Of a stretch of 57,994 nt of DNA, positions 2,646-57,994 are shown piece after piece (the first letter of the stretch is position 1; every line of letters begins with the position of its first letter). The notes below the pieces were generated by a model that was given only the letters and a program-made list of their open reading frames with translations, was not told the origin of the DNA and did no database searches. A program made the position numbers and the translations under genes. The stretch comes from a virus. Its lineage: Duplodnaviria; Caudoviricetes. The stretch is from IMG/VR virus record IMGVR_UViG_3300034190_001214, positions 1 to 57,994 of that record. The stretch is one strand, 5' to 3'.

Positions 2646-2654
2646 GTTGCTAAT

Positions 2655-2824: not shown

Positions 2825-2831
2825 TTTACTA

Positions 2832-2859
2832 TTGACTTTCTTTTTTAATTCGTTATACT
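2832..2859 (+). promoter_or_regulatory. Sigma70-like promoter on the + strand, antisense to the surrounding genes (TTGACT-N16-TATACT)
   Basis: Near-consensus hexamers with AT-rich upstream DNA; no + strand ORF follows. Confidence 0.5.
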
Positions 2860-2889
2860 AAAGCATGTGGTTGGGCATGAGGATATTAG

Positions 2890-3270
2890 TTAATGAACAT
2901 CTTTAATAGTATCTAAAGGATACTCTTTTTCATCAAAATCTTTTTCACTTATTTCCTGTTTACCTTCTTCATCTTTAGTCTCTGGTTTAAACAAAAAGTT
3001 TTCATAGTATCTACTTAGACTCTGACTCGCGACACACATTATTAATATTTCTTCTTTAGGGATTGTAAACTCAATTGATTCTGTAAAAGGGTGTAACCAT
3101 TTTTGTAAAATGACACTATCTTTAATTTCACCTTTCATGTTTATTTTAGGGGTGATTGACAACTCAACTGGTTCAACAATAAAAACTTCTTTCTCAGTTT
3201 CTTTATCTATTAATGTGATAATAGATTCTCCATTTTTGAATTTAATAAATGTGTATATCATTTCATCCAT
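2890..3270 (-). CDS. Conserved-type hypothetical protein between uvsW and gp55 (possible Sm-like fold)
   Basis: FIKFKNGESII...LQKWLHPF pattern; position typical of marine T4-like phages. Confidence 0.7.
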   Translation of the reverse strand: MDEMIYTFIKFKNGESIITLIDKETEKEVFIVEPVELSITPKINMKGEIKDSVILQKWLHPFTESIEFTIPKEEILIMCVASQSLSRYYENFLFKPETKDEEGKQEISEKDFDEKEYPLDTIKDVH

Positions 3271-3274
3271 GATA

Positions 3275-4741: not shown

Positions 4742-5348
4742 ACTGGTAATCTTTTTCTGCACCATATTCTCCACGAAGAACTATATTCCATGCGATTGAA
4801 ATTCTTAATTCATCATCTTGTTGAACAGGCACCCAGTGTACTAACCAACTTGGAAAAACATAACCATGTCCTGCAGCACTTGGAAAGGAAACTAGATTAC
4901 CATTGTCTATATTATCCTCTTTCTTTTGTGGTAGTAATACTTGACTTTGAGGTCTTGGGTCAAAAAATTGTATACCAGATTGATTCTGACTTCCAGTTAT
5001 ATAATAAACACCAGACCAAAAATTATTACTATGTGTATGTGGTGGATGGGCTTGTCCTTTTCTTAGAATATTTCCCCACATATTAGTAATTTCATATCCA
5101 TATGATTTACCATTATTGTCGTACTTTAATCCTTCAGTCGCGGCCTTAGTCGCTTTAATAATATTATCAACTAAAGGAAAAAACATTTCATCTTTATGTA
5201 AGTCTGCACGACCTTGCCAGTTACCCTCATTAGATGATGTACTACTTTCTTTTATAAAATAATCTTTTAATTCATTATTCTTAACACCCTTTCCTTTAAA
5301 TGAGAATACAGATGTTGGAAATAATTTATATTGTTGAAAATCTTCCAT
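4728..5348 (-). CDS. 2OG-Fe(II) oxygenase superfamily protein; likely start ATG 5348
   Basis: HPPHTH, WSGVYY, FFDPR, FPSWLVHWV, RISIAWN. Confidence 0.85.
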   Translation of the reverse strand: MEDFQQYKLFPTSVFSFKGKGVKNNELKDYFIKESSTSSNEGNWQGRADLHKDEMFFPLVDNIIKATKAATEGLKYDNNGKSYGYEITNMWGNILRKGQAHPPHTHSNNFWSGVYYITGSQNQSGIQFFDPRPQSQVLLPQKKEDNIDNGNLVSFPSAAGHGYVFPSWLVHWVPVQQDDELRISIAWNIVLRGEYGAEKDYQYARI

Positions 5349-5350
5349 AA

Positions 5351-5935
5351 TTACATTAACCATACCATTACAGTATATCTATCTCCTTCTGTTACTGGTT
5401 TAACTTCATGTGGATACATAAAGTTAGATGGAAATGCGACAATAGTTCCAGCCTTTGGTTTTTTACTTATTAAACCATTACACATTTCAAATTCTCCACC
5501 TTGATAGTTATCATTTAAATATAATAACATTGTACAATGTGGAAATCCATATTGTTGTCCATGACTATGATGTATATTATCAATATGTCTTGACATAAAT
5601 CCACCTACAGAATATTTGTTTAATCTAAAAGGTGTTGAATGTTGAATAACAATATCTGGATACTCTTCAGTATATTTTTGAAGAGCGACTTTAAATCCAC
5701 TTAACATATCACCATATAGACCGCCTTGGTCTTTTTTAGAAATCCACATTTCATTCATATCAACTTTATCATTTGTCTCTGGTGATAAACCATCTTTTGT
5801 TCCAAAAGTTGATTTGTTCCAACCACCAATAGATTCATAATATTTGATTATACCATCACAGAGTGTAGGTGAAATTATATTTTTATATTCTTTTACAAAA
5901 TCTGTAACCTTTGGTATTTTTGTTTTTGTCGCCAT
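5351..5935 (-). CDS. 2OG-Fe(II) oxygenase, prolyl-4-hydroxylase-like
   Basis: HxD (HID), LYLNDNYQGGEF, FPSNFMYPHEVKPV, GDRY. Confidence 0.88.
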   Translation of the reverse strand: MATKTKIPKVTDFVKEYKNIISPTLCDGIIKYYESIGGWNKSTFGTKDGLSPETNDKVDMNEMWISKKDQGGLYGDMLSGFKVALQKYTEEYPDIVIQHSTPFRLNKYSVGGFMSRHIDNIHHSHGQQYGFPHCTMLLYLNDNYQGGEFEMCNGLISKKPKAGTIVAFPSNFMYPHEVKPVTEGDRYTVMVWLM

Positions 5936-6364
5936 TTATAAAACTCCCGCTTCAAACTTTCGCCATTCAATAGCGTTTTTAATTTGAAAAGTTCTGTTAT
6001 TTAAACTTCTCAAAATCTGTTCTAAATAATTTACAATCGTTTTATTATACGCAATCTTTTGTTCAAGTTCTATCAACTCTTTATCTGATTCTAAGTAAGT
6101 TGAAATATCTGATTTTAAAACTTTTAAATCAAATGGATTTTCTTTGTAAACTTCTGGTGATGACTTTCCACCATAGTATTCCCACTTGTGTTTGTAAAGT
6201 TCTTTGAAGTCTGTTTCAGCTTTCTTTAATAGAAGTGTAAAACGATTATGAAATTTAAGATACTTGTTATGTAACTCTGGAATCTTTAATGATTCAATAT
6301 CAAGATTATCAGAATTTAATTTAATATCTTTGTCTACTTGTTCTTGTAATTGTTGTAAGTCCAT
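5936..6364 (-). CDS. uvsY: Recombination mediator UvsY
   Basis: ESLKIPELHNKYL, WEYYGGK, NRTFQIKNAIEWRKFEAG. Confidence 0.92.
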   Translation of the reverse strand: MDLQQLQEQVDKDIKLNSDNLDIESLKIPELHNKYLKFHNRFTLLLKKAETDFKELYKHKWEYYGGKSSPEVYKENPFDLKVLKSDISTYLESDKELIELEQKIAYNKTIVNYLEQILRSLNNRTFQIKNAIEWRKFEAGVL

Positions 6365-6369
6365 TATAT

Positions 6370-6398
6370 ATTATACCACATTAACATTTTAATTTCAA
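6370..6398 (-). promoter_or_regulatory. Sigma70 promoter for uvsY (TTGAAA-N17-TATAAT), leaderless geometry
   Basis: -10 box ends 5 nt before ATG 6364; no Shine-Dalgarno between. Confidence 0.75.
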
Positions 6399-6409
6399 GT
6401 TATAATTAT

Positions 6410-7006
6410 TTATAGTGAAACTATTTCATATATTTTATATGCAAATGTAACATTCGAAACTAGATACTCAATATCAGAAGCGCCTTGATTATATTCAAGT
6501 GAACCAACACTCAAAGGAAAAACATCTTGAAATCTAACTTCAAGTATTGGATTATTTTTACTTGATAGTATAGTTAGTGTTGCGTCTGAAAACATTGAAC
6601 CATCTGGTGTCGCGAGTCCAGTATCACCAATATCTTTACTTACACTTCTTGTTGTCGCAGTTGGAAATCTTTGAGATTCAGTATCTCTAAATGATTTAAA
6701 TTCTTGTCTTGTTTTTGGAAATCCAATCGCCCTCACCCAATTTTGTAGTTCAATATAATTCTCTAACTTCTCATCAATGATATATGTAATCTCTAAATTA
6801 TCAAAGGTTAAGTTATCACCTTGAAGAGGAATTGTTTTGAATGGTGTTTGGTTATCAATTTGTGGTAATGATATACCTGGTACATTCGCAGTTAAAGTAA
6901 AGTATTCTACTTTAGGTAAAATATTAATACCAAATTTAAACTGTGTTGGACTTGCGTAGTCTAAAGTATCTGGTTGTCTACTAAGTATTCTTGTTGTTGT
7001 TGCCAT
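6410..7006 (-). CDS. gp3: Tail completion / sheath stabiliser (T4 gp3-like)
   Basis: YASPTQFKF, ANVPGI, DEKLENYIELQNW, SDATLTILSSKNNP, FQDVFPLS. Confidence 0.88.
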   Translation of the reverse strand: MATTTRILSRQPDTLDYASPTQFKFGINILPKVEYFTLTANVPGISLPQIDNQTPFKTIPLQGDNLTFDNLEITYIIDEKLENYIELQNWVRAIGFPKTRQEFKSFRDTESQRFPTATTRSVSKDIGDTGLATPDGSMFSDATLTILSSKNNPILEVRFQDVFPLSVGSLEYNQGASDIEYLVSNVTFAYKIYEIVSL

Positions 7007-7013
7007 TTGATTA

Positions 7014-7021
7014 TATTTATA
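7014..7021 (-). promoter_or_regulatory. T4-type late promoter TATAAATA for gp3
   Basis: Exact consensus 7 nt upstream of the ATG. Confidence 0.8.
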
Positions 7022-7037
7022 AGGAATGTTTTAGAAG

Positions 7038-7143
7038 GAGAGTAAGTGTTTAGTTTGGATTTTAGTGTCAGTCTCCTAACTTTCTTCGTGATTCAATCAA
7101 TATTAAACCGAACCCAAACCACTTACTTCCACTTACTTCTCAT
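7038..7143 (-). ncRNA. Candidate small structured RNA (long hairpin) or structured leader
   Basis: AGUAAGUG/CACUUACU and GUUUGGGUU/AAUCCAAAC stems; own promoter upstream; the only ORF is 6 codons. Confidence 0.45.
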
Positions 7144-7147
7144 ATAT

Positions 7148-7178
7148 TATTTATAACATATTTTAGCTTAAAAGTCAA
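7148..7178 (-). promoter_or_regulatory. Dual promoter: TTGACT-N17-TATAAA overlapping late TATAAATA
   Basis: Minus strand reads TTGACTTTTAAGCTAAAATATGTTATAAATA. Confidence 0.65.
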
Positions 7179-7202
7179 GGGGAAACTGCAAAAAGTTTCC
7201 CC
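7179..7202 (-). terminator. Hairpin after the outer-membrane protein gene (probable terminator)
   Basis: GGGGAAACT-N6-AGTTTCCCC 9-bp stem; interrupted U tail. Confidence 0.6.
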
Positions 7203-7222
7203 TTAACACAAAACACTTGTTT

Positions 7223-7855
7223 TTACTTCTGTATCGCAGTTAATTGTGGAAAGTTTATCTTAATAGATGTACCCATATATGTTTCATCATGGTTATTATC
7301 TTTATCTCTTTCCATCTGTGCGAAGAGTGTTAATGATAAATTATCATTGATTTTTTTAATCGCACTTACAGTATGTTCATACTTATTCAGTTTTAACTGT
7401 GAACCTGTATCAGTTTCGTTATCGAAATCCCAATGTGGTTGTAAGTCATACTGAAGTGTGAGTCCACCGATAGGAACTTTCGCACCTATCTTTGGTCTAA
7501 TTCTAAGTATGTCATCTCCCTCATCTTGTTTTAGTCTATACTCTAAAACTGAGTTTGCGAAAAATGGGCCATACCCAAAAGTCTTATGTGTAACTCTGAA
7601 TCTATGTTGATTCTGTCCACTTAGACCAGTTACATATCTGTACTGAGTTTCTAATCTTGGGAATAACTGATATCCAAAAATTAAATGATTTTCATCATCA
7701 TCTACATAACTTCTACTTCCAAATTTGATGTCTCCAAATTTCACTTCAACATTTGTTTCGAATTTGTCCCATTCATTTTCTGGTGTAGAATCTGCGAATG
7801 ACAATGATGTCATAAGTATTAATCCTACAATTATTAATTTAATGTGTTTAAACAT
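7223..7855 (-). CDS. Predicted outer-membrane beta-barrel (porin-like) protein with signal peptide
   Basis: Sec signal MFKHIKLIIVGLILMTSLSFA; alternating amphipathic strands (QHRFRVTHK, LEYRL, ILRIRPKIG, YMGTSIKINF); strong RBS AGGAG. Confidence 0.65.
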   Translation of the reverse strand: MFKHIKLIIVGLILMTSLSFADSTPENEWDKFETNVEVKFGDIKFGSRSYVDDDENHLIFGYQLFPRLETQYRYVTGLSGQNQHRFRVTHKTFGYGPFFANSVLEYRLKQDEGDDILRIRPKIGAKVPIGGLTLQYDLQPHWDFDNETDTGSQLKLNKYEHTVSAIKKINDNLSLTLFAQMERDKDNNHDETYMGTSIKINFPQLTAIQK

Positions 7856-7942
7856 TTTATTTTCTCCTAGTTTTTGTTTTGGTTAATAATACCTATAGAT
7901 ATAGGTATCTTCTTTGAGTTTCTTCTACCATTGTTCTGGTAT

Positions 7943-7986
7943 TATTTATATAAGTTTATATTTACATTTAGTTAAGATTTAGTTAA
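7943..7986 (-). promoter_or_regulatory. Late promoter TATAAATA (7943-7950) preceded by 11-bp tandem repeats TTAACTAAATC/TTAACTAAATG
   Basis: Repeats at 7976-7986 and 7965-7975, degenerate third at 7954-7964; spacing typical of OmpR/PhoB/CtrA-family boxes. Confidence 0.55.
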
Positions 7987-8082
7987 TTATTTAGATTTAG
8001 ATATTCGATAAACACACCAACCAAACAGTGTAATTGGTATAGACCATGATATAATTAAAAAGATAAGCGAATCTAATTCCAT
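7987..8082 (-). CDS. Possible 31-aa single-pass membrane peptide
   Basis: MELDSLIFLIISWSIPITLFGWCVYRISKSK; ATG overlaps the upstream stop (TAATG). Confidence 0.4.
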   Translation of the reverse strand: MELDSLIFLIISWSIPITLFGWCVYRISKSK

Positions 8083-8636
8083 TATGCGACTATTTCCATT
8101 AAAACTAACTCACTTTGACAACATCCTGCATATAAATTATCTCCATCATTTTCTGACCTGTTGACATAAACTACACCAGCACCACCAGCTACATAGGCAT
8201 TTTTACCCTGTATCTTATATGTTACTTCCGATACTGATGATGGACTATCTAAGAAATGTCTATTTAAACAATGTTGTCTATATACCATTGAACCTATTGC
8301 TGTAAAAAATCCACCTGCAAAAGCATTAACATTATTACTGCCACTATTTCCTGTACCACTTCCTATTTCTGTTGAATCTCTTAATAATCTAAAAAAAGGA
8401 TAGCCATCATTTTGTCCACCACTCCAAATCGTAGCATGGATTAATATTTTATGAGATGAGGCAGTTGGTGTGATTGCTGCACTTAATCCAATATCAACAT
8501 AGGTTGCAGTATTAGATGAAGCAAATTTAGTTGTTAATTGTCCCCTTACTGTTTGTACAACAGTTCCACTTGGAAGTATACTTCTTGCGACAGTTCCATT
8601 TCCTAAGTATGTTGGATTTATTGTTTGTAATGCCAT
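8082..8636 (-). CDS. Putative small fibre-tip protein, family A
   Basis: GTVVQTV...GLSAAITP...KIL...LDSPS...TYKIQ...LMEI; paralogous to 35309-35869 and 48986-49474. Confidence 0.6.
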   Translation of the reverse strand: MALQTINPTYLGNGTVARSILPSGTVVQTVRGQLTTKFASSNTATYVDIGLSAAITPTASSHKILIHATIWSGGQNDGYPFFRLLRDSTEIGSGTGNSGSNNVNAFAGGFFTAIGSMVYRQHCLNRHFLDSPSSVSEVTYKIQGKNAYVAGGAGVVYVNRSENDGDNLYAGCCQSELVLMEIVA

Positions 8637-25009: not shown

Positions 25010-28000
25010 CTATGTTGCGAGTGCGATTGCTCTAAAATCTTTTATTCTTGGTGGTAATGCTGAGTTTGTTCCCTGCATTCTTATCTTAATCGCAAATCCT
25101 ATAAATTCATCTAACGATGTTCCTGTACCATCATCATTTTTACCAGCACTATACACATACTCTGTAAAGTCATCTATTGTAGAGTTTGGATTAGCGGTTT
25201 CATCTGGACTTCCATCAGTATTAAAATATGTAAATCCTATATCATCAAAGTTAGTATCCTCATCTGACCTTAGTAATTTAAACATTACTTGTATTTCAGA
25301 AGTTGATGGTCTGTGTGCGTCTAATATGACTCTGAGCGCTGTTGCTGGAGTTTCTAATTGAACTTTTCTTGTAATATAAATCGCCTCGTTACTATCACCA
25401 CTTGGTTCTGTTGGTGCGACATATTCTGATGTTGGATAAACATCTGAAGAACTATCAATGTTATCTAATCTATTCGCTACTGCGACAAATGTCTTTTTAT
25501 CTAAATCAATATATGGTGATAAGAATTCATCTGTTGTTGATAAAACTAAATCAAGTGATAATGATTTAGACCCAGACATTTCATTTGTTTCATTGATTGT
25601 TGAAGCGATTAACTTCGGTACATCAAAATAGAAGTTTTCATTCAACTGGAATGTTACACCAGTAGAAACTTTACTAAATGATGTTTCAGTTCCACTTGGA
25701 CTTGTTCCAGAAGTTGATTTAATTTTTGATGTTAAGTTTGTTTGTGGGAATTCTAACACAGGTAATATAGTTTTAAATGTTTCAAACTGTGCGTTTTCAG
25801 TTGCGACTATCGCACTTCCCCCACCTACATTTGTAGATGTTGCGTTACTTGATACTGTAATGGTATATGAATCAATTCCAATATTTCCAATCGCAGTATG
25901 TGTTGCGTTTATTTCACTTATTGGAATACCATTTACCGCACTACCTGCAGTTGCGACAACACCAGAGATTGTAACATTATTAGATGTTGAGTGCATTTGA
26001 TGGTTCGGGTGATTTACTTTAATTACATTCGAACTGTTTGTTGTTTCAAGTGCGTTTACTGGTAGTGTTACAGTTGGTACTGCGTCATTATTTAATGTTA
26101 ATGTTCCATTTGAAGTTGTTGTAAATGAAGCTCTATATGCGGTGAACTTTAAATCTTCTGCATCAAATGCACTCCAAGTAGAGTTGTTTTGACTTTTAAA
26201 TAATACTCCTAGATATGGTTGTGTACTAACAAATCTACCACCTTTATCTTCCTCACCTTGTCTTGAAATCCAAACATTATAATTGTCTGAATCAGATATT
26301 AAACAAATCGCATATTCTGTATTTGGTGCAAGAAACACTGGTGAATCAAATGTAAAGGTTGTTGCGCTAGAAGCATTTGTTGCATCCACACTTACCGAAC
26401 TTGGATTAAGAGTTACACTTCCAAATGGTAATACTTTTCTTGTTGGATATCCATTATCCATTTCTCTGATTTGTAGAGTTACTGGAATTGTTGCATCTTT
26501 TGTTGAGAAGAAGATATCAATTTTTGTTAAGAATTCTCCTACACCACTCTCTGAAATAATAGATTGTGCGAGTGGGTCAATCCAAGTAGTATTACTTGTT
26601 CTTGCGAGTTCTCTTTGAACTTCTACACTTTGACTTACATCAGTTACTTCAACTCTTGCATTTCTAGTTCCTATAATATCTCTTTCTCTAACTTCAAATA
26701 TACCTTTTGCGCTGTATGTCGCCTGTGCGACAGTATCAACCGCTGTGATTGTATTAGTTGAACTTGAAGTTAATCTAAAGTTTATATCTCCAGTTCTCCA
26801 TCTTGGATTTCCTGCGACAGTTGGATTAGGAATTGCGAATGTTCCTACTACTTTACCATTTGCGTCAGTTGTTAAGTTACCACCAAGTGAACCACCATCT
26901 GGTGTAACATATGCGGTAATACTTCTCTTATCAAAGAATGGATAAACTCTTGTATTTGGTTTCATTCCAGTTGCGGTGAAAGTAACAGTTCTGGCTCTTA
27001 CAAATGGAATTAATGCTTGTGATAAAACTCTTTCATTTACCACTTCTACATCAATTTGTTCAACAACTTGAGTATTAACTCCACCTCTAGTTCTTAGTCC
27101 TGCTTCTTCTAAGATAGTTGTGTTAACTTGTCTTCTACCATCTCTTTCAGTAACTTGTCTTGTAGTTGTAACACCACTCCATTGTGTTTCCCATGCGTTC
27201 CAAACTGTTCCTATTGAATTTTCATTTTGAGCAAAAACAGTATCGAAGTTTCCTTCATTTAATTGAAGAATAATATCTGGATTTTGTTGAACTTCAAACC
27301 ACTCATCACCATCTGGACTTAATTTTACAATACCAGTAAATGCGAAGTTTAGAAATGGATTTACCTTTTCTGTTCTTGTCGCATATGGTTGTGTAATACT
27401 TGCGACATGAGTGTAAGGTAGTGTAACAACATCACCAGTTTTTTGATAACCATCTGATGTTCTTTCTGCGTCTGTTGTATTTTCTTCTGTAAGAGAAATA
27501 CCTTTCATAAAGTATTTTGGTCTTAACTCATTATTTTCAAAGTCAATAGAAACACTATAATCTTCATGTAAAGGATTACCAACTCTATGACCAGAGAAAT
27601 TATCTACAACAAAACCAGATTTAAATCTACTTAAACCATTTTCATCTGTTATTTCAAATGATTGTGTATCTTGTTCTAACAAACTTAATGCAGTGTAATA
27701 TTCCACATTTTGTAATCTTCTTTCAAGTCTTCCGATATCACGCATTGTGTATCTTTTATTAATTTGTTTTTTAAAGTCTGTATCTTCAGTAACATTTACA
27801 ACAAATGGTTCTAAGAACACATCAGCAATTTTCATTGCGTTATCAATAGCTTTTGGTAATGTAGGATTCTCTGATGGTGCGCCTTGTATTAATTTAAACT
27901 CACCTTTTTCATTTAAGAAAATAGAATCTTTTCTTCCAAGATAAAAATCTAAATCATAAACAACATTACTTCCATCTTGACAGATATCTACTGTTGATGA

Positions 28001-31000
28001 ACCTGTTCCAGAAAACGCTCTTGAAGCGAAATCAAAAGAATAACCTGTTATAGTATCTGTTGCGGTAACAGTTCCACTTGCCCCACCAATATCTGCGACT
28101 CTTGGTCTAAAGTCAAGAGAATCTCTTAAATCAAATAAACCACCTGGCTCTCTAGTATCTGGGTCAACACGAGTTGCTTTGTATATTGGTATGTCTTTAT
28201 AATCAATACCAGAATAAGAATCAACACTAAAGAAATCACCAGTACCATGTTCAAAGAAATCAAAGACTACAAGTAATCTTCCTACTGGTGCTGGAACACC
28301 AACCTTTCTAACAAGTCTTGATATATCATAGAAGTTATCTCTTTGACCATCATCTAAAACATAATTACTTGTTACAACACTCGCTCCTGCGGTTACGCCT
28401 GCGCCATCTATTGTAGCAGTTGCTCCAGAGGTTGCGCCTGTTACTTCTTCACTCGCTGAGAAATCTGTTGAAGTAAGAAGAACATATGATAATGGGTCTG
28501 TTGTTGTAATTAATATACCTTTTGCTCCAGATGTTCCACCTGTAATTGTTTCACCTCTTTGGAAAGTTCCTGTAATAGTTCCTATTGGTAATGCAGGTGC
28601 GGTAGCATCTGTACTTGCATCTGCTGCCTCGTAAACTGCGCGAAGTCTAAAACAATCTGCACGACCTAATGAAATTTCATTGTCAGTTGCGTCTGTTCCA
28701 TAAACATGACCAGTTGCTCCACCATTTAAAACTTTTACTTGTTTTGATGATTTAAGTGTTTTTGATTTTTCATTTGATACAGTTCTTGTTAATGTTGCGA
28801 GAACTTGTACTGAGAAATCTCCACTTGTTCCAAAAATAGTTGTTGATGTAATTGTTAAAGTACCTGTACCTGCTCCACCAACACTAACATTTGAACCTGT
28901 AATATCTACAATATCTCCTGCGTCACCACTACCACCTGTTCCATCTTTAACAATTCCTATTGTATAGTTTGCGTTTGTCGCTGATGCGAAAGTTTCATTC
29001 GCGCCTGCACTTAGACTTATAATACCAGATGAGTTTGGTGTTGAGGTAAATTGTCTTCTGATTGTGATTGTCGTGTCTGCGACACCACTATTAGTATCAG
29101 TTTTTAAAGTTTTAACTCTTTTCTTTTTAAGTTTTCTTAAAAGAACATTCTTAGTTTGTTCTTCTAGTTTAGCTCTTTTTCTTACAATGTTCGCAGATGT
29201 AACTACATCTGTTGAAGGTGCTGCGGTGAAAGATATTGCGGCAGATGTAACTCCATCTACTATTCTTTCCTCTGTTGTACCATCTCCTACTGGAATTACA
29301 AGAGTATCACCTACAATGACTTCTCCTGTATCAAAACCAGATATACCAATTAAATTATTAGTACCAGTTGTTTCTGTAATGTATGTACCAGAAAGTGTAA
29401 CTTCATCTGCAAGTTTTATATCTGCAGTGAAATCAACATTTGAACCACCAGTTGCGGCCATATGAGCTTGTTTAGCTTTTGAGAAATTATTTGTTACTAT
29501 TGCGGAAATAGTTAAATCTGTATTACCACTATTCTCAACTATTTGTGATGTTTCACTTGAGTTTGAAGAAGTAATTTTTTCTCCACTTGAGAATGTTCCA
29601 TTAACTGATACTAAAGTTAATCCTGTTCCACTAGTTGCTGCGAAAGCAAATCCAGTTGCGCCAGATGTAACACCTGTTATTTTTGAACCTGCTGCGATTG
29701 CTGGACTTGGTGTTCCATCCAATGTAATGGCGGTGAACATTTTTACATCAAAAAGATATAATCTGAATTCACTACTATTACCTGCGGTATCAGATAAGAA
29801 GTTTGTATTATCTGTTCCACTGATATGTTCAATCGCTCTCGCTCTTGCGACACCAATCTTTGTACCTGCTGCTGTTCCACGAGTTGAAGTTGCGGTATCA
29901 TGTAAGTTTACTGTATTATATGGTGTTACATTACTTGCGATGTTTGGAGAAACTTCTGGAATACTATGAACATTCGTAACCTTTACAAAGTTTCCAAGTT
30001 CTTGTACTGTGACTCCACCATTTAAATTTTCAAAACTTCTTGGTTTAGGAATATCAACAAATGTTGGTGCGACCTGTTCGATTTCATAACCACGAACATA
30101 CGCCTTTCCAGATGATATTTGTGCGGTGAGGAAATCATCACTTGCGGTATTACCATCATCAGTTGTTGTACCACTTGTATAGATACCATCATTTAAACCA
30201 TCATCTAATGTTTCTCTTAATTCAACACTAAATGATTTTGTACTATAATCTCCAGATTCATCGTAAGTTCTTCTTGCGAGATTATCACCTAGAACAGAAT
30301 ATTCAGTATTTCTAACTTGTTCTTGTATTATTCCGTTTTTAACTCTCATTAATTCAACGAAGTTAGTATCTTCTGTTGAACCTATTGCGAGTTTAGAAAG
30401 AGTCGCTGATATTTTTAATCTATGAGCACCTTTCGCTGCGTAATTATTTGTTCCAGTTGCGTTATCAAGAAGTTGTGAATCTGATTCTGGAGTTACCAGA
30501 GTTTCAGTAAGTGTTAAACCAATTCTATATGATGGTGTATCTGTATACTTGTCTAAAATAATTCTTTGTGTTCCAACACGAACGAAATGTCCACGAATAA
30601 AGTAAACACCTTGTTCTATACTTGCAGATGAACCTGTTGCGGTTGCGTCTGAGGATTGTAGTGTCGCTGATGCTGCGTCTGCGCTAAAAGAACCAATGAC
30701 TCCATCTGAAGAAATATTTTCTCCATTAGTGAATATTGCTGAAGTATTGTTAGTTCCTGTTTTTATATATTTAACAAATAGTGTAATAGGGTCAGTGCTT
30801 GTTCCTGCCTCGGCTTGAATAACCTCTGCGACAACACCAGAACTTGCTCCTGTAATTCTTGTACCTACATAGTCTTGGATATCACCTGCGATTGAAGAAC
30901 TAGAAAATGTTGATTGTAATTTTACTGCGAAAAATTCATTAGTAAATCCAATGTTACCTGGTATAACCATTGAACCTTCTTTAAACATATGTCTACCAAA

Positions 31001-31150
31001 TCTATCGATTTGATTTTGAAGAATGGTCTGTAGTGTTGTTAGTTCTCTAGCCTGTATTGCAAATGATGGTCTAAATAAAACACGATTAAAATTATCCGTT
31101 TCATCAAAGTCATCATAGTAAGGAGAGATATTTAAATTTGTTTTTTCCAT
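25010..31150 (-). CDS. Very large baseplate/tail structural protein (DUF4815 / VrlC-like)
   Basis: 2046 aa; NLNISPYYDDFD, VLFRP..IQARELT.LQ.ILQNQ, LARRTYDESGDY, YTMRDIGRLERR, RFKSGFVVDNF, DPLAQS, PRIKDFRAIALA. Confidence 0.85.
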   Translation of the reverse strand: MEKTNLNISPYYDDFDETDNFNRVLFRPSFAIQARELTTLQTILQNQIDRFGRHMFKEGSMVIPGNIGFTNEFFAVKLQSTFSSSSIAGDIQDYVGTRITGASSGVVAEVIQAEAGTSTDPITLFVKYIKTGTNNTSAIFTNGENISSDGVIGSFSADAASATLQSSDATATGSSASIEQGVYFIRGHFVRVGTQRIILDKYTDTPSYRIGLTLTETLVTPESDSQLLDNATGTNNYAAKGAHRLKISATLSKLAIGSTEDTNFVELMRVKNGIIQEQVRNTEYSVLGDNLARRTYDESGDYSTKSFSVELRETLDDGLNDGIYTSGTTTDDGNTASDDFLTAQISSGKAYVRGYEIEQVAPTFVDIPKPRSFENLNGGVTVQELGNFVKVTNVHSIPEVSPNIASNVTPYNTVNLHDTATSTRGTAAGTKIGVARARAIEHISGTDNTNFLSDTAGNSSEFRLYLFDVKMFTAITLDGTPSPAIAAGSKITGVTSGATGFAFAATSGTGLTLVSVNGTFSSGEKITSSNSSETSQIVENSGNTDLTISAIVTNNFSKAKQAHMAATGGSNVDFTADIKLADEVTLSGTYITETTGTNNLIGISGFDTGEVIVGDTLVIPVGDGTTEERIVDGVTSAAISFTAAPSTDVVTSANIVRKRAKLEEQTKNVLLRKLKKKRVKTLKTDTNSGVADTTITIRRQFTSTPNSSGIISLSAGANETFASATNANYTIGIVKDGTGGSGDAGDIVDITGSNVSVGGAGTGTLTITSTTIFGTSGDFSVQVLATLTRTVSNEKSKTLKSSKQVKVLNGGATGHVYGTDATDNEISLGRADCFRLRAVYEAADASTDATAPALPIGTITGTFQRGETITGGTSGAKGILITTTDPLSYVLLTSTDFSASEEVTGATSGATATIDGAGVTAGASVVTSNYVLDDGQRDNFYDISRLVRKVGVPAPVGRLLVVFDFFEHGTGDFFSVDSYSGIDYKDIPIYKATRVDPDTREPGGLFDLRDSLDFRPRVADIGGASGTVTATDTITGYSFDFASRAFSGTGSSTVDICQDGSNVVYDLDFYLGRKDSIFLNEKGEFKLIQGAPSENPTLPKAIDNAMKIADVFLEPFVVNVTEDTDFKKQINKRYTMRDIGRLERRLQNVEYYTALSLLEQDTQSFEITDENGLSRFKSGFVVDNFSGHRVGNPLHEDYSVSIDFENNELRPKYFMKGISLTEENTTDAERTSDGYQKTGDVVTLPYTHVASITQPYATRTEKVNPFLNFAFTGIVKLSPDGDEWFEVQQNPDIILQLNEGNFDTVFAQNENSIGTVWNAWETQWSGVTTTRQVTERDGRRQVNTTILEEAGLRTRGGVNTQVVEQIDVEVVNERVLSQALIPFVRARTVTFTATGMKPNTRVYPFFDKRSITAYVTPDGGSLGGNLTTDANGKVVGTFAIPNPTVAGNPRWRTGDINFRLTSSSTNTITAVDTVAQATYSAKGIFEVRERDIIGTRNARVEVTDVSQSVEVQRELARTSNTTWIDPLAQSIISESGVGEFLTKIDIFFSTKDATIPVTLQIREMDNGYPTRKVLPFGSVTLNPSSVSVDATNASSATTFTFDSPVFLAPNTEYAICLISDSDNYNVWISRQGEEDKGGRFVSTQPYLGVLFKSQNNSTWSAFDAEDLKFTAYRASFTTTSNGTLTLNNDAVPTVTLPVNALETTNSSNVIKVNHPNHQMHSTSNNVTISGVVATAGSAVNGIPISEINATHTAIGNIGIDSYTITVSSNATSTNVGGGSAIVATENAQFETFKTILPVLEFPQTNLTSKIKSTSGTSPSGTETSFSKVSTGVTFQLNENFYFDVPKLIASTINETNEMSGSKSLSLDLVLSTTDEFLSPYIDLDKKTFVAVANRLDNIDSSSDVYPTSEYVAPTEPSGDSNEAIYITRKVQLETPATALRVILDAHRPSTSEIQVMFKLLRSDEDTNFDDIGFTYFNTDGSPDETANPNSTIDDFTEYVYSAGKNDDGTGTSLDEFIGFAIKIRMQGTNSALPPRIKDFRAIALAT

Positions 31151-51861: not shown

Positions 51862-53817
51862 CTATACCTCTGTATATCTCCATCCATTAGTTGAGTTATA
51901 ATAAACTAATGAAAATGCTGCACTGTCTGTACTCACTGTTAAGTCTTCTGCGTTTCCATTTATTTTTTGACTGTTTCTTCCAACAGTAATATTATTTGTT
52001 CCCGAATTTCCAGCCGCGTCAATAAGTCTTACTTCATCTCCAAGACTTGGGGATGCAGGAAGAGTTATCGTGACTGCTGCGCTTGATACATCAATTAAAT
52101 ATGCGCCACCTGCGACTGCGGTAAAATCTGAAGTTTTATTTTCCCAAGCTCTTCTTGCGAACAACTCACTTTTATCTATTTTCGCATATCCTATCGCATT
52201 ATCTGATACAGAACCAACAGTTGTTTGAAGTCCTAAGTGTAACGCACGAAGGGTTGAATCTGTCGCTGGTGCGGCAGACATAGTAAGTGTTGTTCCACTT
52301 ACACTATACGCACTAACTGGTTGAACGATACCATCAACTGTAACTAATATTGCGTTTGTATTTGGTGGTATCTGTGAAAGAGTAAATGCGGTTGTTGAAT
52401 TATCTCCAGTAAATTTATCTTCTGTAAATGTTTTTAATCCAGTAGCAAGTTTATTTGATGTTACCGCTCCATCTGTTATACTCGCAGATGAACCCGTAAA
52501 TCCTAAATGTAAAACTCTAATTGCTGCGTTGAGTGGTGGTGCGGTTGTAAATGTTAAAGTTGTTGAACTAACACTATAGTTTCCTGCAGGTTGAATAACA
52601 CCAGAGACACTAACTAAAATTGAAGTATCACTTGGGGGTGCGACAGACAGAGTAAATGTTGTGTCAGAACCATCTCCTGTAAATGTGTCTTCTGTAAATG
52701 TTTTTAATCCACTATCAAGTTTCGCACTTGTAACAGAACCATCAGAGATACTACTCACAGAAGCGGTAAATCCTAAATGTAAAACTCTAATCGCGACATT
52801 ATTGGGTGGTGCGGTTGTAAATGTTAATGTAGTAGAACTAACACTATAGTTTCCTGCAGGTTGAGATACACCATCTAAAAATACCATTATTGAAGTATCA
52901 CTTGGTGGTGCGACTGATAAAGTAAATGTTGTATCAGAACCATCCCCTGTAAAAGTATCCTCTGTAAAAGATTTTAAACCAGTATCAAGTTTTGCGGCTG
53001 TAACTGTACCATCACCTGGTGTTCCTATATCTTGAGTATCAATAGCGATAATATAATCAATCACATCATCTGAAGAAAGTGATTCAGTAAATGTAATTGT
53101 TGAACCAGATATACTGTATGCGTCTACAGGTGCCTGTGTAACACCATTAACACTTACGATTGTACCATTTGTAGTTGCGCTTGTAAACGCAGATGAACTA
53201 ACATTTAAAGTATATGCGGTACTACCATCAGTAGTAATCGCATCCATTTTTGTAAAACTACTAGTTACAGAAGCGAATGATAATGCTGCACTTCCATCTG
53301 TTTTTAAAAACTGTCCTGCACTTCCATCTGAGTTTGGAAATGATAAACCATCTAAAACGACATTACCACTACCATTTGGAGTGATTGTAATATTACCATT
53401 GGCCCCATCCAGTATTGATATAGTACCAGAATTAGTTCCATTATTTGTATTAAGAATTAAGTCGCCTGTACCTTGTGTGGTTATAGTTGCGTTCGCATTG
53501 TTATCACCAACTTGAACTGTATCAGCGCCAAGATTTATATCCCCTGTTCCGTTTGGAATAATATCAATATCTGCGTTTGATGTTGATACTATATCATTAC
53601 CATTTAAATCTAAATTTCCACCAAGTTGAGGAGATGTATCATCTACAACATCACCAATACCACTTGCGTTCGCAAGTTCAACGATACTATCATCAGATTT
53701 ACGAATAAAGATTTTTTGGTCGGTAATATTTACCGCTATTTCACCAACTTCAATATCACTTGTGCCTGGTGTGGAACTAGAGGTTTCACTTCTTTTTGGT
53801 TTTATTCTAACGCCCAT
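51862..53817 (-). CDS. Tail fibre with tandem ~85-90-aa beta-domain repeats
   Basis: N-terminal IKPKRS..GEIAVN domain, DTSPQLGGNLD, three near-identical FTED.FTGD...TFTLS..PP...RVLHLG repeats plus one diverged copy, shared C-terminal domain. Confidence 0.8.
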   Translation of the reverse strand: MGVRIKPKRSETSSSTPGTSDIEVGEIAVNITDQKIFIRKSDDSIVELANASGIGDVVDDTSPQLGGNLDLNGNDIVSTSNADIDIIPNGTGDINLGADTVQVGDNNANATITTQGTGDLILNTNNGTNSGTISILDGANGNITITPNGSGNVVLDGLSFPNSDGSAGQFLKTDGSAALSFASVTSSFTKMDAITTDGSTAYTLNVSSSAFTSATTNGTIVSVNGVTQAPVDAYSISGSTITFTESLSSDDVIDYIIAIDTQDIGTPGDGTVTAAKLDTGLKSFTEDTFTGDGSDTTFTLSVAPPSDTSIMVFLDGVSQPAGNYSVSSTTLTFTTAPPNNVAIRVLHLGFTASVSSISDGSVTSAKLDSGLKTFTEDTFTGDGSDTTFTLSVAPPSDTSILVSVSGVIQPAGNYSVSSTTLTFTTAPPLNAAIRVLHLGFTGSSASITDGAVTSNKLATGLKTFTEDKFTGDNSTTAFTLSQIPPNTNAILVTVDGIVQPVSAYSVSGTTLTMSAAPATDSTLRALHLGLQTTVGSVSDNAIGYAKIDKSELFARRAWENKTSDFTAVAGGAYLIDVSSAAVTITLPASPSLGDEVRLIDAAGNSGTNNITVGRNSQKINGNAEDLTVSTDSAAFSLVYYNSTNGWRYTEV

Positions 53818-53870: not shown

Positions 53871-56537
53871 TTAGAATGTTCCACCATCAACTGATGTTGA
53901 CCAAGAGATAGTATCGCTTGATGAAGTGTATAATAATATACCATCGTTTGAACCACCACCATCTAATGCACTGATTGTATTCGCAGAGTTTGCGATGATA
54001 ACCGAACCTTTTGCTGCGGCGGTTAATCCTGTTCCACCATTACCAACTGGTAATGCTCCAGTTACCTTTGCGGTAAGGTCAATTGAACCCGCTAACATTG
54101 CGTTTGTAATACCACTCGCCTTTACTCTAAGTGCGTCAGAATTTATTTCAATAGAAGAATCATCAACTCCAACTGAAAGTGTGTTTCCAGATTTCGCCAG
54201 ACCAGCACCTGCTGATATTTGACCTGCTCCAGAGAACTGTTCTACAGTTAGGTTTGTAGTACCCATAGTTGGTGAACCATTATGTGTGAACACATAACCA
54301 TTGTCTGCGTTTGCAGTACCTTCTTCTACAAATACGAAACTACCACCTGTTAACTCTGCTGCGGTATCTGCGTCAGTTGCCCTTGTAAGAACATACGCTG
54401 CGCTACCACTACCAACAGTTGTAACTGTGTATATACCATTGTGTGCGGTAGTTGATTGGTTCTTAACAAGAACTCTATCACTTGTACTAAGTGTAACACC
54501 ATCTAATGTTATCGCTCCATTTGAACCTGCGGTAAGTGTTGCGCCTACTCCAGATGAACCATTACTATAACTTGGACTGTTTCCGAGTGCGTCAGTAGTT
54601 GCGGCTTTAACTGAACCTTTAACATCTAATCCATTTGCGACACTATCCACATACGCCTTTGTTGCTGCGTCCTGTGCGCTTGATGGGTCAGTAACACTTG
54701 TAATCCTAGAAGAATTAACATCAACTGTTCCAGAACCATTAGGGTCTAATGTAAGGTTTCCATTTGAGTTTGTTGTTGAAATTGTATTACCATCTATTGT
54801 GATATTATCAACATCAACAGAAGTTAATCCATTTAAGTCTGTGATTGTATCACCAAGTGATGTATCATCAGAACCAATTGTAATACCATCATTCGCAAGT
54901 TTTGCGTTTGCGATTGAACCCGCTAGTTCATCATTGTTAACACCACCATTTTTAATTGTTACGGCTCCAGATGATACTGCGAAGTTATCTGAACTAAATG
55001 AGGCGACACCCTTATTAGATGTACTTGCGTCCTCACCTGCGATAGTAATTTCATCATCTGATACTGTTGTATCAATACCTTCACCACCAGTAAATGTTAG
55101 TGTACCACCAGTTGAGAATGAATCATTACTTCCACTATCTGCTGCGAGTGTAAAAGTACTTGTTATTGAACCAAATGATAAGACTCCAGAACCATTTGTT
55201 TTTAGAAACTGTCCTGCACTTCCATCAGCACTTGGGAAATCAAATGCGACACCATTAGATGTAAATATAAGATGTCCACCATCTGATGAAATAGATTCAT
55301 TTGCGTCATGGAATTGTAATGTAGGTGTTCCACCAGAATCTTGTAAAAGTAATCCTGTATCAGCGACATGAGTTAATGTAATCTCATTGTCTGCGCCGAA
55401 CTTAATTATAGAAGCGTCTGTACCTAATTCTAAATCGTGATTTAAGATAAGTGTACCTGCGTCACTACCATCGAATGTGGCCATAGTGATATCTGCGGTA
55501 TTGTCTGTTCCTTTGATGATAACATCTGAATCATTCGCCGCGGCGTCTATTGTGATATTACCAGATGATGTTGTTATGTTAACTGCTCCATCACCACTAG
55601 TAATATCATCTGCTGCGATTGCGGTTGCGGTAACTCCACTAAATGATAATGTTCCAGAACCATTTGTTTTTAGGAACTGTCCATTTGACCCATCTGAAGA
55701 AGGGACTGTGAATGCAGTTCCACCAGATGTTAAGATTAAATTACTACCATCTGAAGATACAGATTCGTTTGCGTCATGTAACTGAAGTGTTGGTGAACCA
55801 CCACTATCTGCGAGTAATAATCCTGTGTCTGCTACATGAGTTAATGTAATTTCATTATCAGCACCAAACTTAATTATTGAACCATCTGTTCCTAATTCTA
55901 AATCATGGTTCGCGATTAATGTACCTGCGTCAGAACCATCGATAGTTAAGAATGTTGTATCTGAACTACCATCTGTTCCTTTAAAAATAATATCAGTATC
56001 ATTACCTTGTGCGTCTATCGTAATATTACCAGCGGTTGTTGTTAAGGTTGCTGCTGCATCACCTGCGGCGATATTATCTAATGCGGGTGTTTCATCTGCG
56101 AATGATAATGTACCACTTGCGTTTGTTTTTATAACCTGTCCAGAACTACCATCTGCGGTTGGTAAAGTAAATGTTACACTTGCGGCGAGTGAGTTACCCG
56201 CTTTTAAACCAATGAAGTGAGTACCATTTGTTGTACCTTCATTTAATTTTAAAGTACCACCAGTACTACTATTATTACCAATAAGAAGTTCATCGACCGC
56301 TTTGTTTGAATCTACAACAACTGCAGAACTTGCGGTAAGTGTACCTGCGACATGGTCTAACATATCGGAGAAATATTGTCCACCGATTACATTAACCGAA
56401 CTACCATCTCCTATGAAAAGTCTATCGCCGTTATTCGCCTGTGTACCAGTACCATGTGTATATCCTAATTCACCATCTGCGAGTGAGGATGGAGCAGTTG
56501 TTCCAGTACTTCTTTTTATCTGTAATGTTACTGCCAT
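53871..56537 (-). CDS. Long tail fibre protein
   Basis: N-terminal LQIKRS...LADGELGY, internal duplication (NHDLELGTD..IIKFGADNEITLTHVADTGL), DAATKAYVD, RVLVKNQ..NGIY, C-terminal DGGTF. Confidence 0.8.
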   Translation of the reverse strand: MAVTLQIKRSTGTTAPSSLADGELGYTHGTGTQANNGDRLFIGDGSSVNVIGGQYFSDMLDHVAGTLTASSAVVVDSNKAVDELLIGNNSSTGGTLKLNEGTTNGTHFIGLKAGNSLAASVTFTLPTADGSSGQVIKTNASGTLSFADETPALDNIAAGDAAATLTTTAGNITIDAQGNDTDIIFKGTDGSSDTTFLTIDGSDAGTLIANHDLELGTDGSIIKFGADNEITLTHVADTGLLLADSGGSPTLQLHDANESVSSDGSNLILTSGGTAFTVPSSDGSNGQFLKTNGSGTLSFSGVTATAIAADDITSGDGAVNITTSSGNITIDAAANDSDVIIKGTDNTADITMATFDGSDAGTLILNHDLELGTDASIIKFGADNEITLTHVADTGLLLQDSGGTPTLQFHDANESISSDGGHLIFTSNGVAFDFPSADGSAGQFLKTNGSGVLSFGSITSTFTLAADSGSNDSFSTGGTLTFTGGEGIDTTVSDDEITIAGEDASTSNKGVASFSSDNFAVSSGAVTIKNGGVNNDELAGSIANAKLANDGITIGSDDTSLGDTITDLNGLTSVDVDNITIDGNTISTTNSNGNLTLDPNGSGTVDVNSSRITSVTDPSSAQDAATKAYVDSVANGLDVKGSVKAATTDALGNSPSYSNGSSGVGATLTAGSNGAITLDGVTLSTSDRVLVKNQSTTAHNGIYTVTTVGSGSAAYVLTRATDADTAAELTGGSFVFVEEGTANADNGYVFTHNGSPTMGTTNLTVEQFSGAGQISAGAGLAKSGNTLSVGVDDSSIEINSDALRVKASGITNAMLAGSIDLTAKVTGALPVGNGGTGLTAAAKGSVIIANSANTISALDGGGSNDGILLYTSSSDTISWSTSVDGGTF

Positions 56538-56549
56538 TGTTTAAACTCC

Positions 56550-56825
56550 TTAGAAACTACCACCACTTAAAACTATATCACCTGCGGTTGTATCAATAGT
56601 TGTTCTTGCGACAAACTTATTTGTTGAGGCTTTATATTGTAATAATGCGCCATCGTTTAATGTTGATACATCAACATCAGATAATGTTTGTAATGTACTT
56701 GCTGAACTTCCTGTTGGGCCTTGTGGGCCAGGGACAGTTACTCTTACAACTTGTGGTTGACTCGACTGTGCGAAACTTCCAGTAATACTTCTTGATGATG
56801 TTAAATTTGCGGTTATCGTTGACAT
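56550..56825 (-). CDS. Small collagen-motif fibre adaptor
   Basis: GPQGPTG, LSDVD...DGALLQY, C-terminal SGGSF. Confidence 0.65.
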   Translation of the reverse strand: MSTITANLTSSRSITGSFAQSSQPQVVRVTVPGPQGPTGSSASTLQTLSDVDVSTLNDGALLQYKASTNKFVARTTIDTTAGDIVLSGGSF

Positions 56826-56834
56826 CTAATACTC

Positions 56835-57173
56835 CTATCTTGAAACACTTGGATTTACTGTTGCGACTCCCTCAACTACTCTTGTTGTTGTCGCACTATC
56901 AGAAGTTGTAATCGCGAGGTCATAAACATATCTACCCGCTTTTAACGCTCCTGTTTGTGTCGCCGTTAAACTTAAATCTATCTTTCCAGTAGTTCTATCT
57001 GCGTTAAATGCTACAGTCATAGAAGTTGCGGTTGAAGACAAATAAGTCTTACGAATTTGAGCGACTGCGGTATACCCCGTAAGGTCTAACGCACTTCCTG
57101 TACTATCGTTAACTGTAACTGTGGTACTAAAAGTTGCGTCTTGGTCAATAAATATATTTGATAGTGTCGCCAT
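56835..57173 (-). CDS. Ig-like fibre attachment protein (BppU N-terminal-like)
   Basis: IDQDATF, DLTGYT..AQIRK, GKI.LSLTA.QT, GRYVYD, RVVEG...V.PSV. Confidence 0.7.
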   Translation of the reverse strand: MATLSNIFIDQDATFSTTVTVNDSTGSALDLTGYTAVAQIRKTYLSSTATSMTVAFNADRTTGKIDLSLTATQTGALKAGRYVYDLAITTSDSATTTRVVEGVATVNPSVSR

Positions 57174-57193
57174 CGCAAATCCTTTTTTCTAAT

Positions 57194-57201
57194 TATTTAT
57201 A
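57194..57201 (-). promoter_or_regulatory. Late promoter TATAAATA for the fibre operon
   Basis: Exact consensus (CCTTATAAATA), AAGGA RBS. Confidence 0.78.
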
Positions 57202-57221
57202 AGGAATGGATAGTTAATATA

Positions 57222-57920
57222 TTATTTTAAAGCGATAATACCGACAAACATATGATTTCTCCAGAAACATTGTGTTTTTGAGAAACCAACATCGTTTAAC
57301 ATATCAATAATCTCTTCATAGGTATTTGGTTTTAACATATGTCTTAGTTCTCTCTCTTTATCCATGATATCATCGGTTGAGAAAGAATCTCTTTTATAAT
57401 CATAATAATTAAATGTCAACATCTCTTGAAAGTTTGCGTTCTCACAAATAGTCTTTTCACTCATGATAAACGAACCACCTTCATTGAGTCCATCATATAA
57501 TTTTTGAAGAACCATCTTTCTTTTTCGAGGTGACATGAACTGAAGTGTAAAGATAGAGGTGACTAGAGAACAATTATTAAATTCATAATTACAAATATCA
57601 TCAAAGATAAAAGATATTCTTTCATTCGCAAATTGTTTACGAAGATTTTCTTCTCTTTGTCGAAGTGGTTTTACAAATCCAGTCGCGAGTTCTACACCTA
57701 TCCAATTTACATCACAGATAACTCCAAAGTTTTTTTCAATCATTCTTTCGGTTAACTTACCAGTTGAACATCCAATATCAACAACATTTGTTCCACTATC
57801 AACAAAGTATTGACTGTATGCGATAACATCATTTAATAATTCTGAATATCCACGAATAGATTTATTGATATGTTCATCAAATCCTTCTTGTCTGTGTGCG
57901 AATGTAAAATCATAATCCAT
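57222..57920 (-). CDS. cmoA: CmoA-like SAM-dependent protein (putative carboxy-SAM synthase)
   Basis: F.F....FDEHINKSIRGY, DIGCSTG, IFTLQF, L..GG..I.SEK, GF...CFWR...F.G..A.K follow the CmoA pattern. Confidence 0.8.
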   Translation of the reverse strand: MDYDFTFAHRQEGFDEHINKSIRGYSELLNDVIAYSQYFVDSGTNVVDIGCSTGKLTERMIEKNFGVICDVNWIGVELATGFVKPLRQREENLRKQFANERISFIFDDICNYEFNNCSLVTSIFTLQFMSPRKRKMVLQKLYDGLNEGGSFIMSEKTICENANFQEMLTFNYYDYKRDSFSTDDIMDKERELRHMLKPNTYEEIIDMLNDVGFSKTQCFWRNHMFVGIIALK

Positions 57921-57994
57921 TATTCTTTCTCCTTGTATGGTTTTAAAATCTTTTCATATACTGAATCTGCGATAGCCTTCATCATCAAAGGAGG
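57920..57994 (-). CDS. C-terminal end of a probable C5-cytosine DNA methyltransferase (gene begins beyond the window)
   Basis: PPLMMKAIADSVYEKILKPYKEKE* resembles the helix after motif X (GxxVPP); TAATG-coupled to the CmoA-like gene. Only 24 aa visible. Confidence 0.6.
   Translation of the reverse strand, partial: PPLMMKAIADSVYEKILKPYKEKE

Follow-up and report, generated by a model that had tools for sequence, protein, structure and literature searches.

What does the broken end of this phage contig encode: a system for carboxymethylating DNA, or a synthase of carboxy-SAM (Cx-SAM) that merely happens to lie beside an ordinary cytosine methyltransferase? The window, by which we mean the whole stretch of DNA analysed, is an IMG/VR virus contig of 57,994 bases whose last positions hold a complete homologue of the Cx-SAM synthase gene cmoA and, immediately upstream of it on the same strand, the final codons of a second gene. 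A sequence-only reading had taken this pair for a CmoA-like Cx-SAM synthase and a C5-methyltransferase that carboxymethylate the cytosines of the phage so that its DNA evades restriction. Homology to the enzymes of Synechococcus phage S-B43 supports that proposal, and on these sequence comparisons we consider it very likely that the contig ends in a two-gene early cmoX–cmoA cassette, which would make 5-carboxymethylcytosine (5cxmC) in phage DNA and thereby block restriction.

The system to which we assign the pair is described by Yang et al. (Nat Commun 2025; PMC12783734). According to that account, the CmoA of S-B43 (SpCmoA) converts SAM and prephenate into Cx-SAM with a kcat of 2.33 per s, and CmoX, a C5-methyltransferase homologue, uses this cofactor to carboxymethylate cytosines at C5 within GC motifs, yielding 5-carboxymethylcytosine. 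Specifically, in the structure of the S-B43 enzyme (SpCmoX, 8YF3), Arg350 contacts the cofactor carboxylate, and the R350N mutant is dead. A further enzyme, the asparagine-synthetase homologue CmoY, ligates glycine to 5cxmC, and native S-B43 DNA is reported to contain the glycine amide, with 5cxmdC undetectable. The accompanying survey of phage sequences in IMG/VR v4, UniProtKB and MGnify lists 5,615 candidate CmoX proteins (SPPC plus R350), 4,257 CmoA proteins, 2,251 ligases and 1,660 ParBc-domain proteins (PMC12783734). The sequence-only reading had pointed to a reported natural phage example, and the CmoA/CmoX/CmoY system of S-B43 is that example; it had also asked for a check on novelty, and none is left, since the CmoA/CmoX system is already in print. 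Our literature search recovered no further relevant report of phage CmoA/CmoX carboxymethylcytosine.

The phage that carries the new pair is a T4-like marine myophage with a backbone nearest to Melnitz and the pelagimyophages, and not a cyanophage. Its portal protein is 69.7% identical to that of Methylophilales phage Melnitz, compared with 61.4% and 60.2% for the Pelagibacter phages Mosig and HTVC008M and ~55–58% for cyanomyophages. The contig has a GC content of 33.8%, bears nearly all of its long ORFs on the minus strand and is estimated to represent 32% of the genome. Like S-B43, it belongs to the T4-like myophages of aquatic bacteria and shows no CmoB. The absence of cmoB had been noted from the sequence and holds up in a search of the contig with E. 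coli CmoB, in which the best match (E 0.16) was at chance level and fell on cmoA itself.

The complete gene, cmoA (57222..57920, minus strand), is an ATG-started ORF, called as such and assigned by homology, that encodes a 232-aa Cx-SAM synthase homologue. The two CmoA equivalog models of NCBIfam are by far its top matches in that collection (TIGR00740, E 9.5e-37, scoring 126.9 bits where the curated cut-off is 193.3; NF011995, E 2.1e-27, scoring 96.2 bits where it is 285), the next family following at E 6.4e-10. Solved structures that match the ORF end to end are E. coli CmoA (4GEK and 4IWN) and H. influenzae YecO (1IM8), with 4GEK aligning to residues 4–232 at E 3.4e-26. A match to the contig CmoA occurs in 69 of 50,697 phage records, and the six best belong to Synechococcus phages S-B05, RB11-B, S-B43, RN05-S and S-CRM01 (two records), at 56.9–57.3% identity and 100% query coverage. 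S-B43 matches by tblastn at E 1e-82, and its validated SpCmoA shares 133 of 232 residues (57%) with the contig protein over the full length, with one gap. Given the matches to TIGR00740, 4GEK and S-B43, the ORF is no chance frame.

A protein of this kind might nonetheless be a plain SAM-dependent methyltransferase acting on some other substrate, and several features can be cited for this: both equivalog scores lie under their cut-offs, Pfam returns only generic class-I methyltransferase domains, and one residue central to the E. coli enzyme is replaced. In E. coli CmoA, Arg199 forms a salt bridge to the cofactor carboxylate and is described as conserved across the CmoA family; contacts to SAM or Cx-SAM are made by Tyr39, Asp62, Gly64, Ser66, Asp89, Asp117 and Phe137, and Glu164 is the putative base (Byrne et al. 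2013, PMC3663124). The contig CmoA keeps the corresponding cofactor-contact residues Y25, D48, G50, S52, D108, F128 and E155, and has Glu77 at the position of Asp89. Asn90 and Asn132 are changed, as they are in the validated SpCmoA. The replaced residue lies in the stretch K188-E189-R190-E191-L192-R193, the KERELR that the sequence-only reading had correctly picked out and had held as a caveat against CmoA. Here Glu189 aligns with Arg199 and Arg193 with Glu203, so that the E. coli pair is swapped. The caveat is answered by SpCmoA, which reads KEKELR at the same place, and because that enzyme is validated, the KERELR arrangement is compatible with high activity.

The swap is also the rule among the relatives. 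We aligned 56 CmoA sequences (the contig, S-B43, S-CRM01, E. coli, three other phages and 49 loci with full-length matches, loci with a partial cmoA being excluded), in which the putative base (E155 in the contig) and the SAM contacts were invariant in all 56. At the Arg199 column, 52 sequences have Glu and three have Arg; at the Glu203 column, where the contig has Arg193, the counts are 52 for Arg and three for Glu. Taken as pairs, Glu/Arg occurs in 51 and the reverse, Arg/Glu, in three E. coli-type sequences (E. coli, PaBG and Alexandra). The neighbouring column of contig Arg190 is Arg or Lys in 48 of the 56, and Arg190 and Arg193, on the same side of Glu189, are the candidates for the contact with the cofactor carboxylate. 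Together with the 57% full-length identity to SpCmoA, which itself has the Glu at the Arg199 column and the Arg four residues later, this argues against a plain methyltransferase, a reading that we regard as very unlikely. The contig protein is thus best read as a CmoA of the phage type: it shares its fold family and SAM-contact residues with the bacterial CmoA/CmoB pathway for tRNA cmo5U34 and is ~30% identical to E. coli CmoA, and it differs from that pathway in that its partner is a DNA C5-methyltransferase homologue, not CmoB.

The partner survives in the window only as the 3' end of cmoX (57920..57994, minus strand), the last 24 codons and a TAA stop, recognized by translation and by its match to the CmoX of a near-identical contig. 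The minus-strand frame starting at base 57994 reads PPLMMKAIADSVYEKILKPYKEKE before the stop. The sequence-only reading had described a CmoA-pattern ORF whose ATG overlaps the stop of an upstream frame with 24 visible residues, and both points are confirmed: the TAA (57922–57920) and the ATG of cmoA (57920–57918) share one base (TAATG), and the upstream frame runs off the contig. Off the contig with it lie 359 of 383 codons, including those for the SPPC Cys nucleophile, the ENV motif and the pocket Arg. A circular join of the missing part to the start of the contig was considered and rejected: a 340-aa ATPase-like minus-strand ORF is cut at that end and the frames do not join. Both ends cut genes, so there is no wrap-round.

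The fragment is nevertheless informative. Its first nine residues, PPLMMKAIA, had been read as the end of C5-methyltransferase motif X, an assignment borne out by SpCmoX, whose C-terminus (...ERVGRMVPPLMMKAIAENIYKEVLSKL) contains the same nine residues, as does that of the S-CRM01 homologue (...RIGRMVPPLMMKEIASSVYKNVLSKLK). The C5-methyltransferase of Melnitz, the closest cultured backbone, ends in the similar VYENILKPYKEIQ, reading APLQMKYLA where the contig reads PPLMMKAIA; it has SPPC, and its pocket position is Leu (IGLMVAP), not Arg. The tail alone is therefore no proof of CmoX, and since the fragment begins exactly at PP, the defining Arg would lie three codons past base 57994, unreadable here. 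The cut gene could accordingly encode an ordinary SAM-using C5-methyltransferase that makes 5mC, with CmoA either feeding a host CmoB for tRNA cmo5U or draining SAM against SAM-dependent defences. Such a reading gains from the position of the Arg codon outside the contig, from the Leu-bearing homologue in Melnitz with its similar tail, and from the Discussion of Yang et al., which poses SAM depletion by CmoA as an open question (PMC12783734).

What decides the matter for this lineage is a set of near-identical contigs. The contig CmoA, searched against viral contigs, recovered four loci (L003–L006, of which L003 and L004 are IMG/VR contigs) whose CmoA is 99–100% identical. By blastn they match the contig at 94.7, 92.9, 91.0 and 93.6% DNA identity over 2.6–5.6 kb, and each alignment reaches the final base of the contig, 57994. 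Upstream of cmoA, with the same one-base overlap, all four have a 383-aa ORF ending ...RIGRMVPPLMMKAIADSVYEKILKPYKEKQ. The fragment in the window shares 23 of its 24 residues with positions 360–383 of the L003 protein (E 5.4e-9). This 383-aa protein matches PF00145 at E 5.5e-54 and SpCmoX (8YF3) at E 1.3e-150, with 60% identity to the latter, whereas HaeIII and HhaI are far weaker matches (~1e-23 to 1e-15); in the HaeIII alignment, IGNAVP stands opposite IGRMVP.

A metagenome scan with the 383-aa CmoX then gave 135 relatives; we retained the best 80 and combined them with L003–L006 into a set of 84 loci. Three of these best 80 of 135 (L011–L013) also have a CmoA 99–100% identical to that of the contig, which brings the near group to seven loci. 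In all seven, a complete PF00145 CmoX of 383 aa with SPPC, ENV and GRMVPP lies upstream of cmoA, and the three motifs are present in every one of the 84 loci (L003–L006 plus the best 80 of 135). The upstream gene is thus a C5-methyltransferase homologue in each near-identical contig, as predicted. The catalytic motifs and basic pocket residue that the sequence-only reading had suggested looking for (PCQ/ENV and a basic side chain) appear there as SPPC, ENV and the Arg of GRMVPP, while in the window itself they are unreadable. From these relatives we infer that the cut gene of this contig would carry the Arg as well.

The same data weigh heavily against a 5mC-forming partner. The 91–95% DNA identity to L003–L006, all of which read GRMVPP, extends through the last base of the contig, and its PPLMMKAIA is the tail of CmoX, not that of Melnitz. 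A cmoA was found in 57 of the 84 loci (L003–L006 plus the best 80 of 135), in all 57 directly after a GRMVPP-bearing cmoX; the remaining 27 have no cmoA in the sequence that they span, which includes at least 1,000 nt downstream in 18 of them. A phage CmoB, as noted above, was not found in the contig. Conversely, a CmoA homologue is missing from Melnitz, Mosig and HTVC008M (0 of 3, with S-B43 as positive control), and the Leu-bearing methyltransferase of Melnitz, 45% identical to the L003 CmoX, is followed directly by a Tet_JBP 2OG dioxygenase (E 3.6e-11). That methyltransferase–dioxygenase pair points to a probable 5mC-oxidation route of the phage TET kind. We therefore hold a 5mC-forming partner to be highly improbable, and take the cut gene to be very probably a cmoX.

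Among known loci, that of S-B43 resembles the cmoX–cmoA pair closely at the level of the proteins, with CmoA homologous along its full length and the partner in the near-identical contigs sharing SPPC and the Arg350 equivalent. By contrast, the order cmoX–cmoA with a one-base overlap differs from cmoA–cmoY–cmoX in S-B43 and cmoA–cmoX in S-CRM01, and the cassette stands directly before tail-fibre genes in a Melnitz/pelagimyophage-like backbone. Pseudomonas phage PaBG offers a further comparison, its locus running ParB-like gene, DNA cytosine methylase, CmoA homologue, hypothetical gene and asparagine synthase. The order ParB-like gene, C5-methyltransferase and CmoA recurs in L003, L004 and L011, where cmoX is preceded by a 348-aa gene whose product ParB_N matches only weakly, at E 0.0026 and under the cut-off; in L006 and L012, an AAA_5/CbbQ_C ATPase gene is found further upstream. 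PaBG differs in its CmoA, which shares only ~31% identity with that of the contig and has the Arg of the E. coli type at the Arg199 column, and in the asparagine-synthase gene located two genes downstream.

This last gene bears on what the final product would be. S-B43 has CmoY, and no such ligase was found near the pair described here. If the unsampled remainder of the genome encoded a CmoY-type ATP-dependent amide ligase, 5cxmC would be only an intermediate on the way to an amide, for example 5-glycylcarboxymethylcytosine, as in S-B43. The sampled fraction leaves room for this, the contig representing ~32% of its genome and the record that holds L003 (G001) ~27%; moreover, 24 of the 84 loci (L003–L006 plus the best 80 of 135) have a CmoY homologue, located just upstream of cmoX in 20 and downstream in four, and native S-B43 DNA yielded the glycine amide only (PMC12783734). 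On the other side, wherever CmoY is present in that set of 84 (again the best 80 of 135 plus L003–L006), it lies within ~3.7 kb of cmoX. Neither SpCmoY nor the PaBG asparagine synthase detected one by tblastn in the seven nearest loci, which extend up to 4,579 nt upstream, or in the 58 kb of the contig downstream of the pair, where the best SpCmoY match had E 1.9. PF00733 was matched in neither of two records (the contig and G001), compared with 13 of 14 control genomes. In addition, CmoY is absent from seven more distant cmoX–cmoA loci with at least 5 kb on both sides, drawn from the same 84 (L003–L006 plus the best 80 of 135).

A search for neighbouring amide ligase or hypermodification genes, which the sequence-only reading had proposed, thus returned no ligase in the contig or the seven nearest loci. 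At the other end of the window, a Pfam scan of ten ORFs at 1009–8636 likewise gave no ligase; the backbone genes recognized there encode an SbcD/gp47-like Metallophos nuclease, the helicase UvsW, UvsY and a pair of 2OG-Fe(II) oxygenases. Weighing these observations, we regard processing of 5cxmC to an amide in this phage as a possibility to be taken seriously, albeit not the expected outcome.

Signals around the pair suggest when it would be expressed. In L003, the cmoX ATG lies 10 nt beyond the end of a sigma-70-like sequence (TTGACA-16 nt-TATAGT, 11 of 12 positions) whose second hexamer is preceded by a TG. This sequence recurs ahead of cmoX in all seven near loci, despite different genes further upstream. 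On the other flank, the 48-nt gap after the cmoA stop contains TATAAATA (57194..57201, minus strand), a late-promoter-type motif assessed by its count relative to shuffled sequence, and the first gene of the tail-fibre module begins beyond that gap with an ATG at 57173. We take TATAAATA to be the T4 late-promoter consensus. It occurs 16 times in the contig, compared with 8.5 +/- 3.1 in shuffles, with 14 of the 16 matches on the coding (minus) strand and many of them located just before ORF starts. The genes beyond cmoA match tail-fibre and tail-fibre-assembly PHROGs, and no terminator-like site was found in 56500–57994, hence none between cmoA and these genes. As a putative late promoter, TATAAATA may mark the downstream boundary of the cmoX–cmoA unit, and the arrangement predicts an early cassette abutting a late tail-fibre module.

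Under the reading that we favour, the pair would work as follows, with enzymatic activities and early expression both deduced from homology and promoter-like signals. Early in infection, CmoA would convert SAM and host prephenate to carboxy-SAM. CmoX, a C5-cytosine methyltransferase homologue with an Arg in place of the pocket Asn of HhaI, would flip out the target cytosine, and its SPPC cysteine would attack C6. The enzyme would then move the carboxymethyl group, its carboxylate bound by the Arg, from Cx-SAM to cytosine C5 to give 5-carboxymethylcytosine. Phage DNA modified in this way would resist host restriction. By analogy with S-B43, the target would probably be GpC, of which the contig contains 1,388 sites at an observed/expected ratio of 0.85.

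For the Melnitz/pelagimyophage-like lineage, a broader scenario can be envisioned, which we put forward tentatively and with less than even confidence. The cmoX–cmoA cassette may be a self-contained, ligase-free early unit whose unprocessed 5cxmC would be the final base of virion DNA, unlike the native DNA of S-B43 with its glycine amide. Because sister phages pair the same C5-methyltransferase scaffold with a TET/JBP dioxygenase, the pocket residue (Arg or Leu) and the partner gene would switch together between two routes of cytosine hypermodification within one phage group.

With the biochemistry, a structure and an extensive phage survey already published, the value of the present locus lies in annotation and comparative context, not in discovery. 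What is new is a different marine myophage lineage, a gene order unlike that of S-B43 and S-CRM01, and a setting in which no ligase was found nearby. With 135 relatives recovered in one scan, the CmoX family is common in marine metagenomes. Since the surroundings of the pair yielded no amide ligase, the lineage provides a natural setting in which to ask whether 5cxmC can be a terminal modification, and the locus would extend the CmoA/CmoX carboxymethylcytosine system to a non-cyanophage lineage of open-ocean T4-like myophages.

The Cx-SAM synthase homologue CmoA differs from its E. coli counterpart by a charge swap. The K188-R193 codons of the window CmoA lie at 57342-57359, and the columns of E. 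coli Arg199 and Glu203 read Glu and Arg in 51 of the 56 aligned CmoA sequences, among them the validated SpCmoA of Synechococcus phage S-B43; Arg/Glu is found only in E. coli, Pseudomonas phage PaBG and phage Alexandra. Cx-SAM synthases may fall into two sub-types that share this helix but bind the carboxylate from different turns of it.

Upstream of cmoX, the gene of the C5-cytosine transferase homologue, a near-consensus sigma-70-like promoter (TTGACA-16-TATAGT) occurs at 1373-1400 of L003, one of the seven nearest loci, and its sequence is identical in the other six (L004-L006 and L011-L013). Only 10 nt separate the 3' end of this site from the cmoX ATG, with no Shine-Dalgarno sequence visible between them, and a transcript from the predicted promoter would be almost leaderless. 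In three of the seven loci, the gene immediately upstream of cmoX encodes a 348-aa ParB_N-like protein (L003 294-1340, L004 299-1345 and L011 358-1401), its match to ParB_N being weak and under the cut-off (E 0.0026). The order ParB-like, methylase, CmoA recurs in PaBG, and ParBc-domain proteins are encoded on many CmoX contigs (PMC12783734).

Elsewhere in the window, two 2OG-Fe(II) oxygenase genes lie next to each other on the minus strand and overlap (4728-5363, PF13759, E 5.4e-23; 5351-5935, PF13640, E 5e-18), with uvsW and uvsY on either side, and a 2,046-aa ORF occupies 25010-31150 (minus) of the structural region. Two large tail-fibre-like ORFs (51862-53817 and 53871-56537, both minus) are internally repetitive, with units of about 90 aa such as the recurring ...LKTFTEDTFTGDGSDTTFTLSVAPPSDTSI... 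blocks. In a blastn comparison with the window, relatives match these ORFs at more than one position, so the pair looks like a variable, repeat-built receptor-binding region. The motif TATAAATA occurs 16 times in the window (among the sites are 6407, 7014, 10675, 12119, 13374, 19121, 24758, 32676, 37110, 42267 and 57194), against 8.5 expected, with 14 of the 16 sites on the coding strand and many a short way 5' of ORF starts, a placement that we take to resemble that of T4 late promoters.

CmoX with both SPPC and GRMVPP is encoded without cmoA in the available DNA of 27 of the 84 related loci, a set including the best 80 of 135 metagenome relatives (L034-L039, L041, L043, L044, L050, L051, L053, L055 and L056; and L058, L059, L062, L064, L068, L069, L071, L073, L075, L076, L078, L082 and L084). 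At least 1 kb downstream of cmoX is available in 18 of these 27. In L058, the long ORFs flanking cmoX read like a family-B DNA polymerase on one side and a RecA/UvsX recombinase on the other. Such phages may carry cmoA elsewhere in the genome or may depend on host CmoA, the latter being conceivable since the host CmoA of E. coli was enough in published work (PMC12783734).

Methylophilales phage Melnitz, the cultured phage with the backbone closest to that of the window phage, encodes a C5-methyltransferase directly followed by a Tet_JBP dioxygenase gene (L094 2511-4695, corresponding to record positions 4010-6194). This methyltransferase is 45% identical to CmoX of the window lineage but, unlike CmoX, has Leu at the position of Arg350, and a search for a CmoA homologue in Melnitz found none. 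Partner gene and pocket residue appear to switch in concert between these sister phages.
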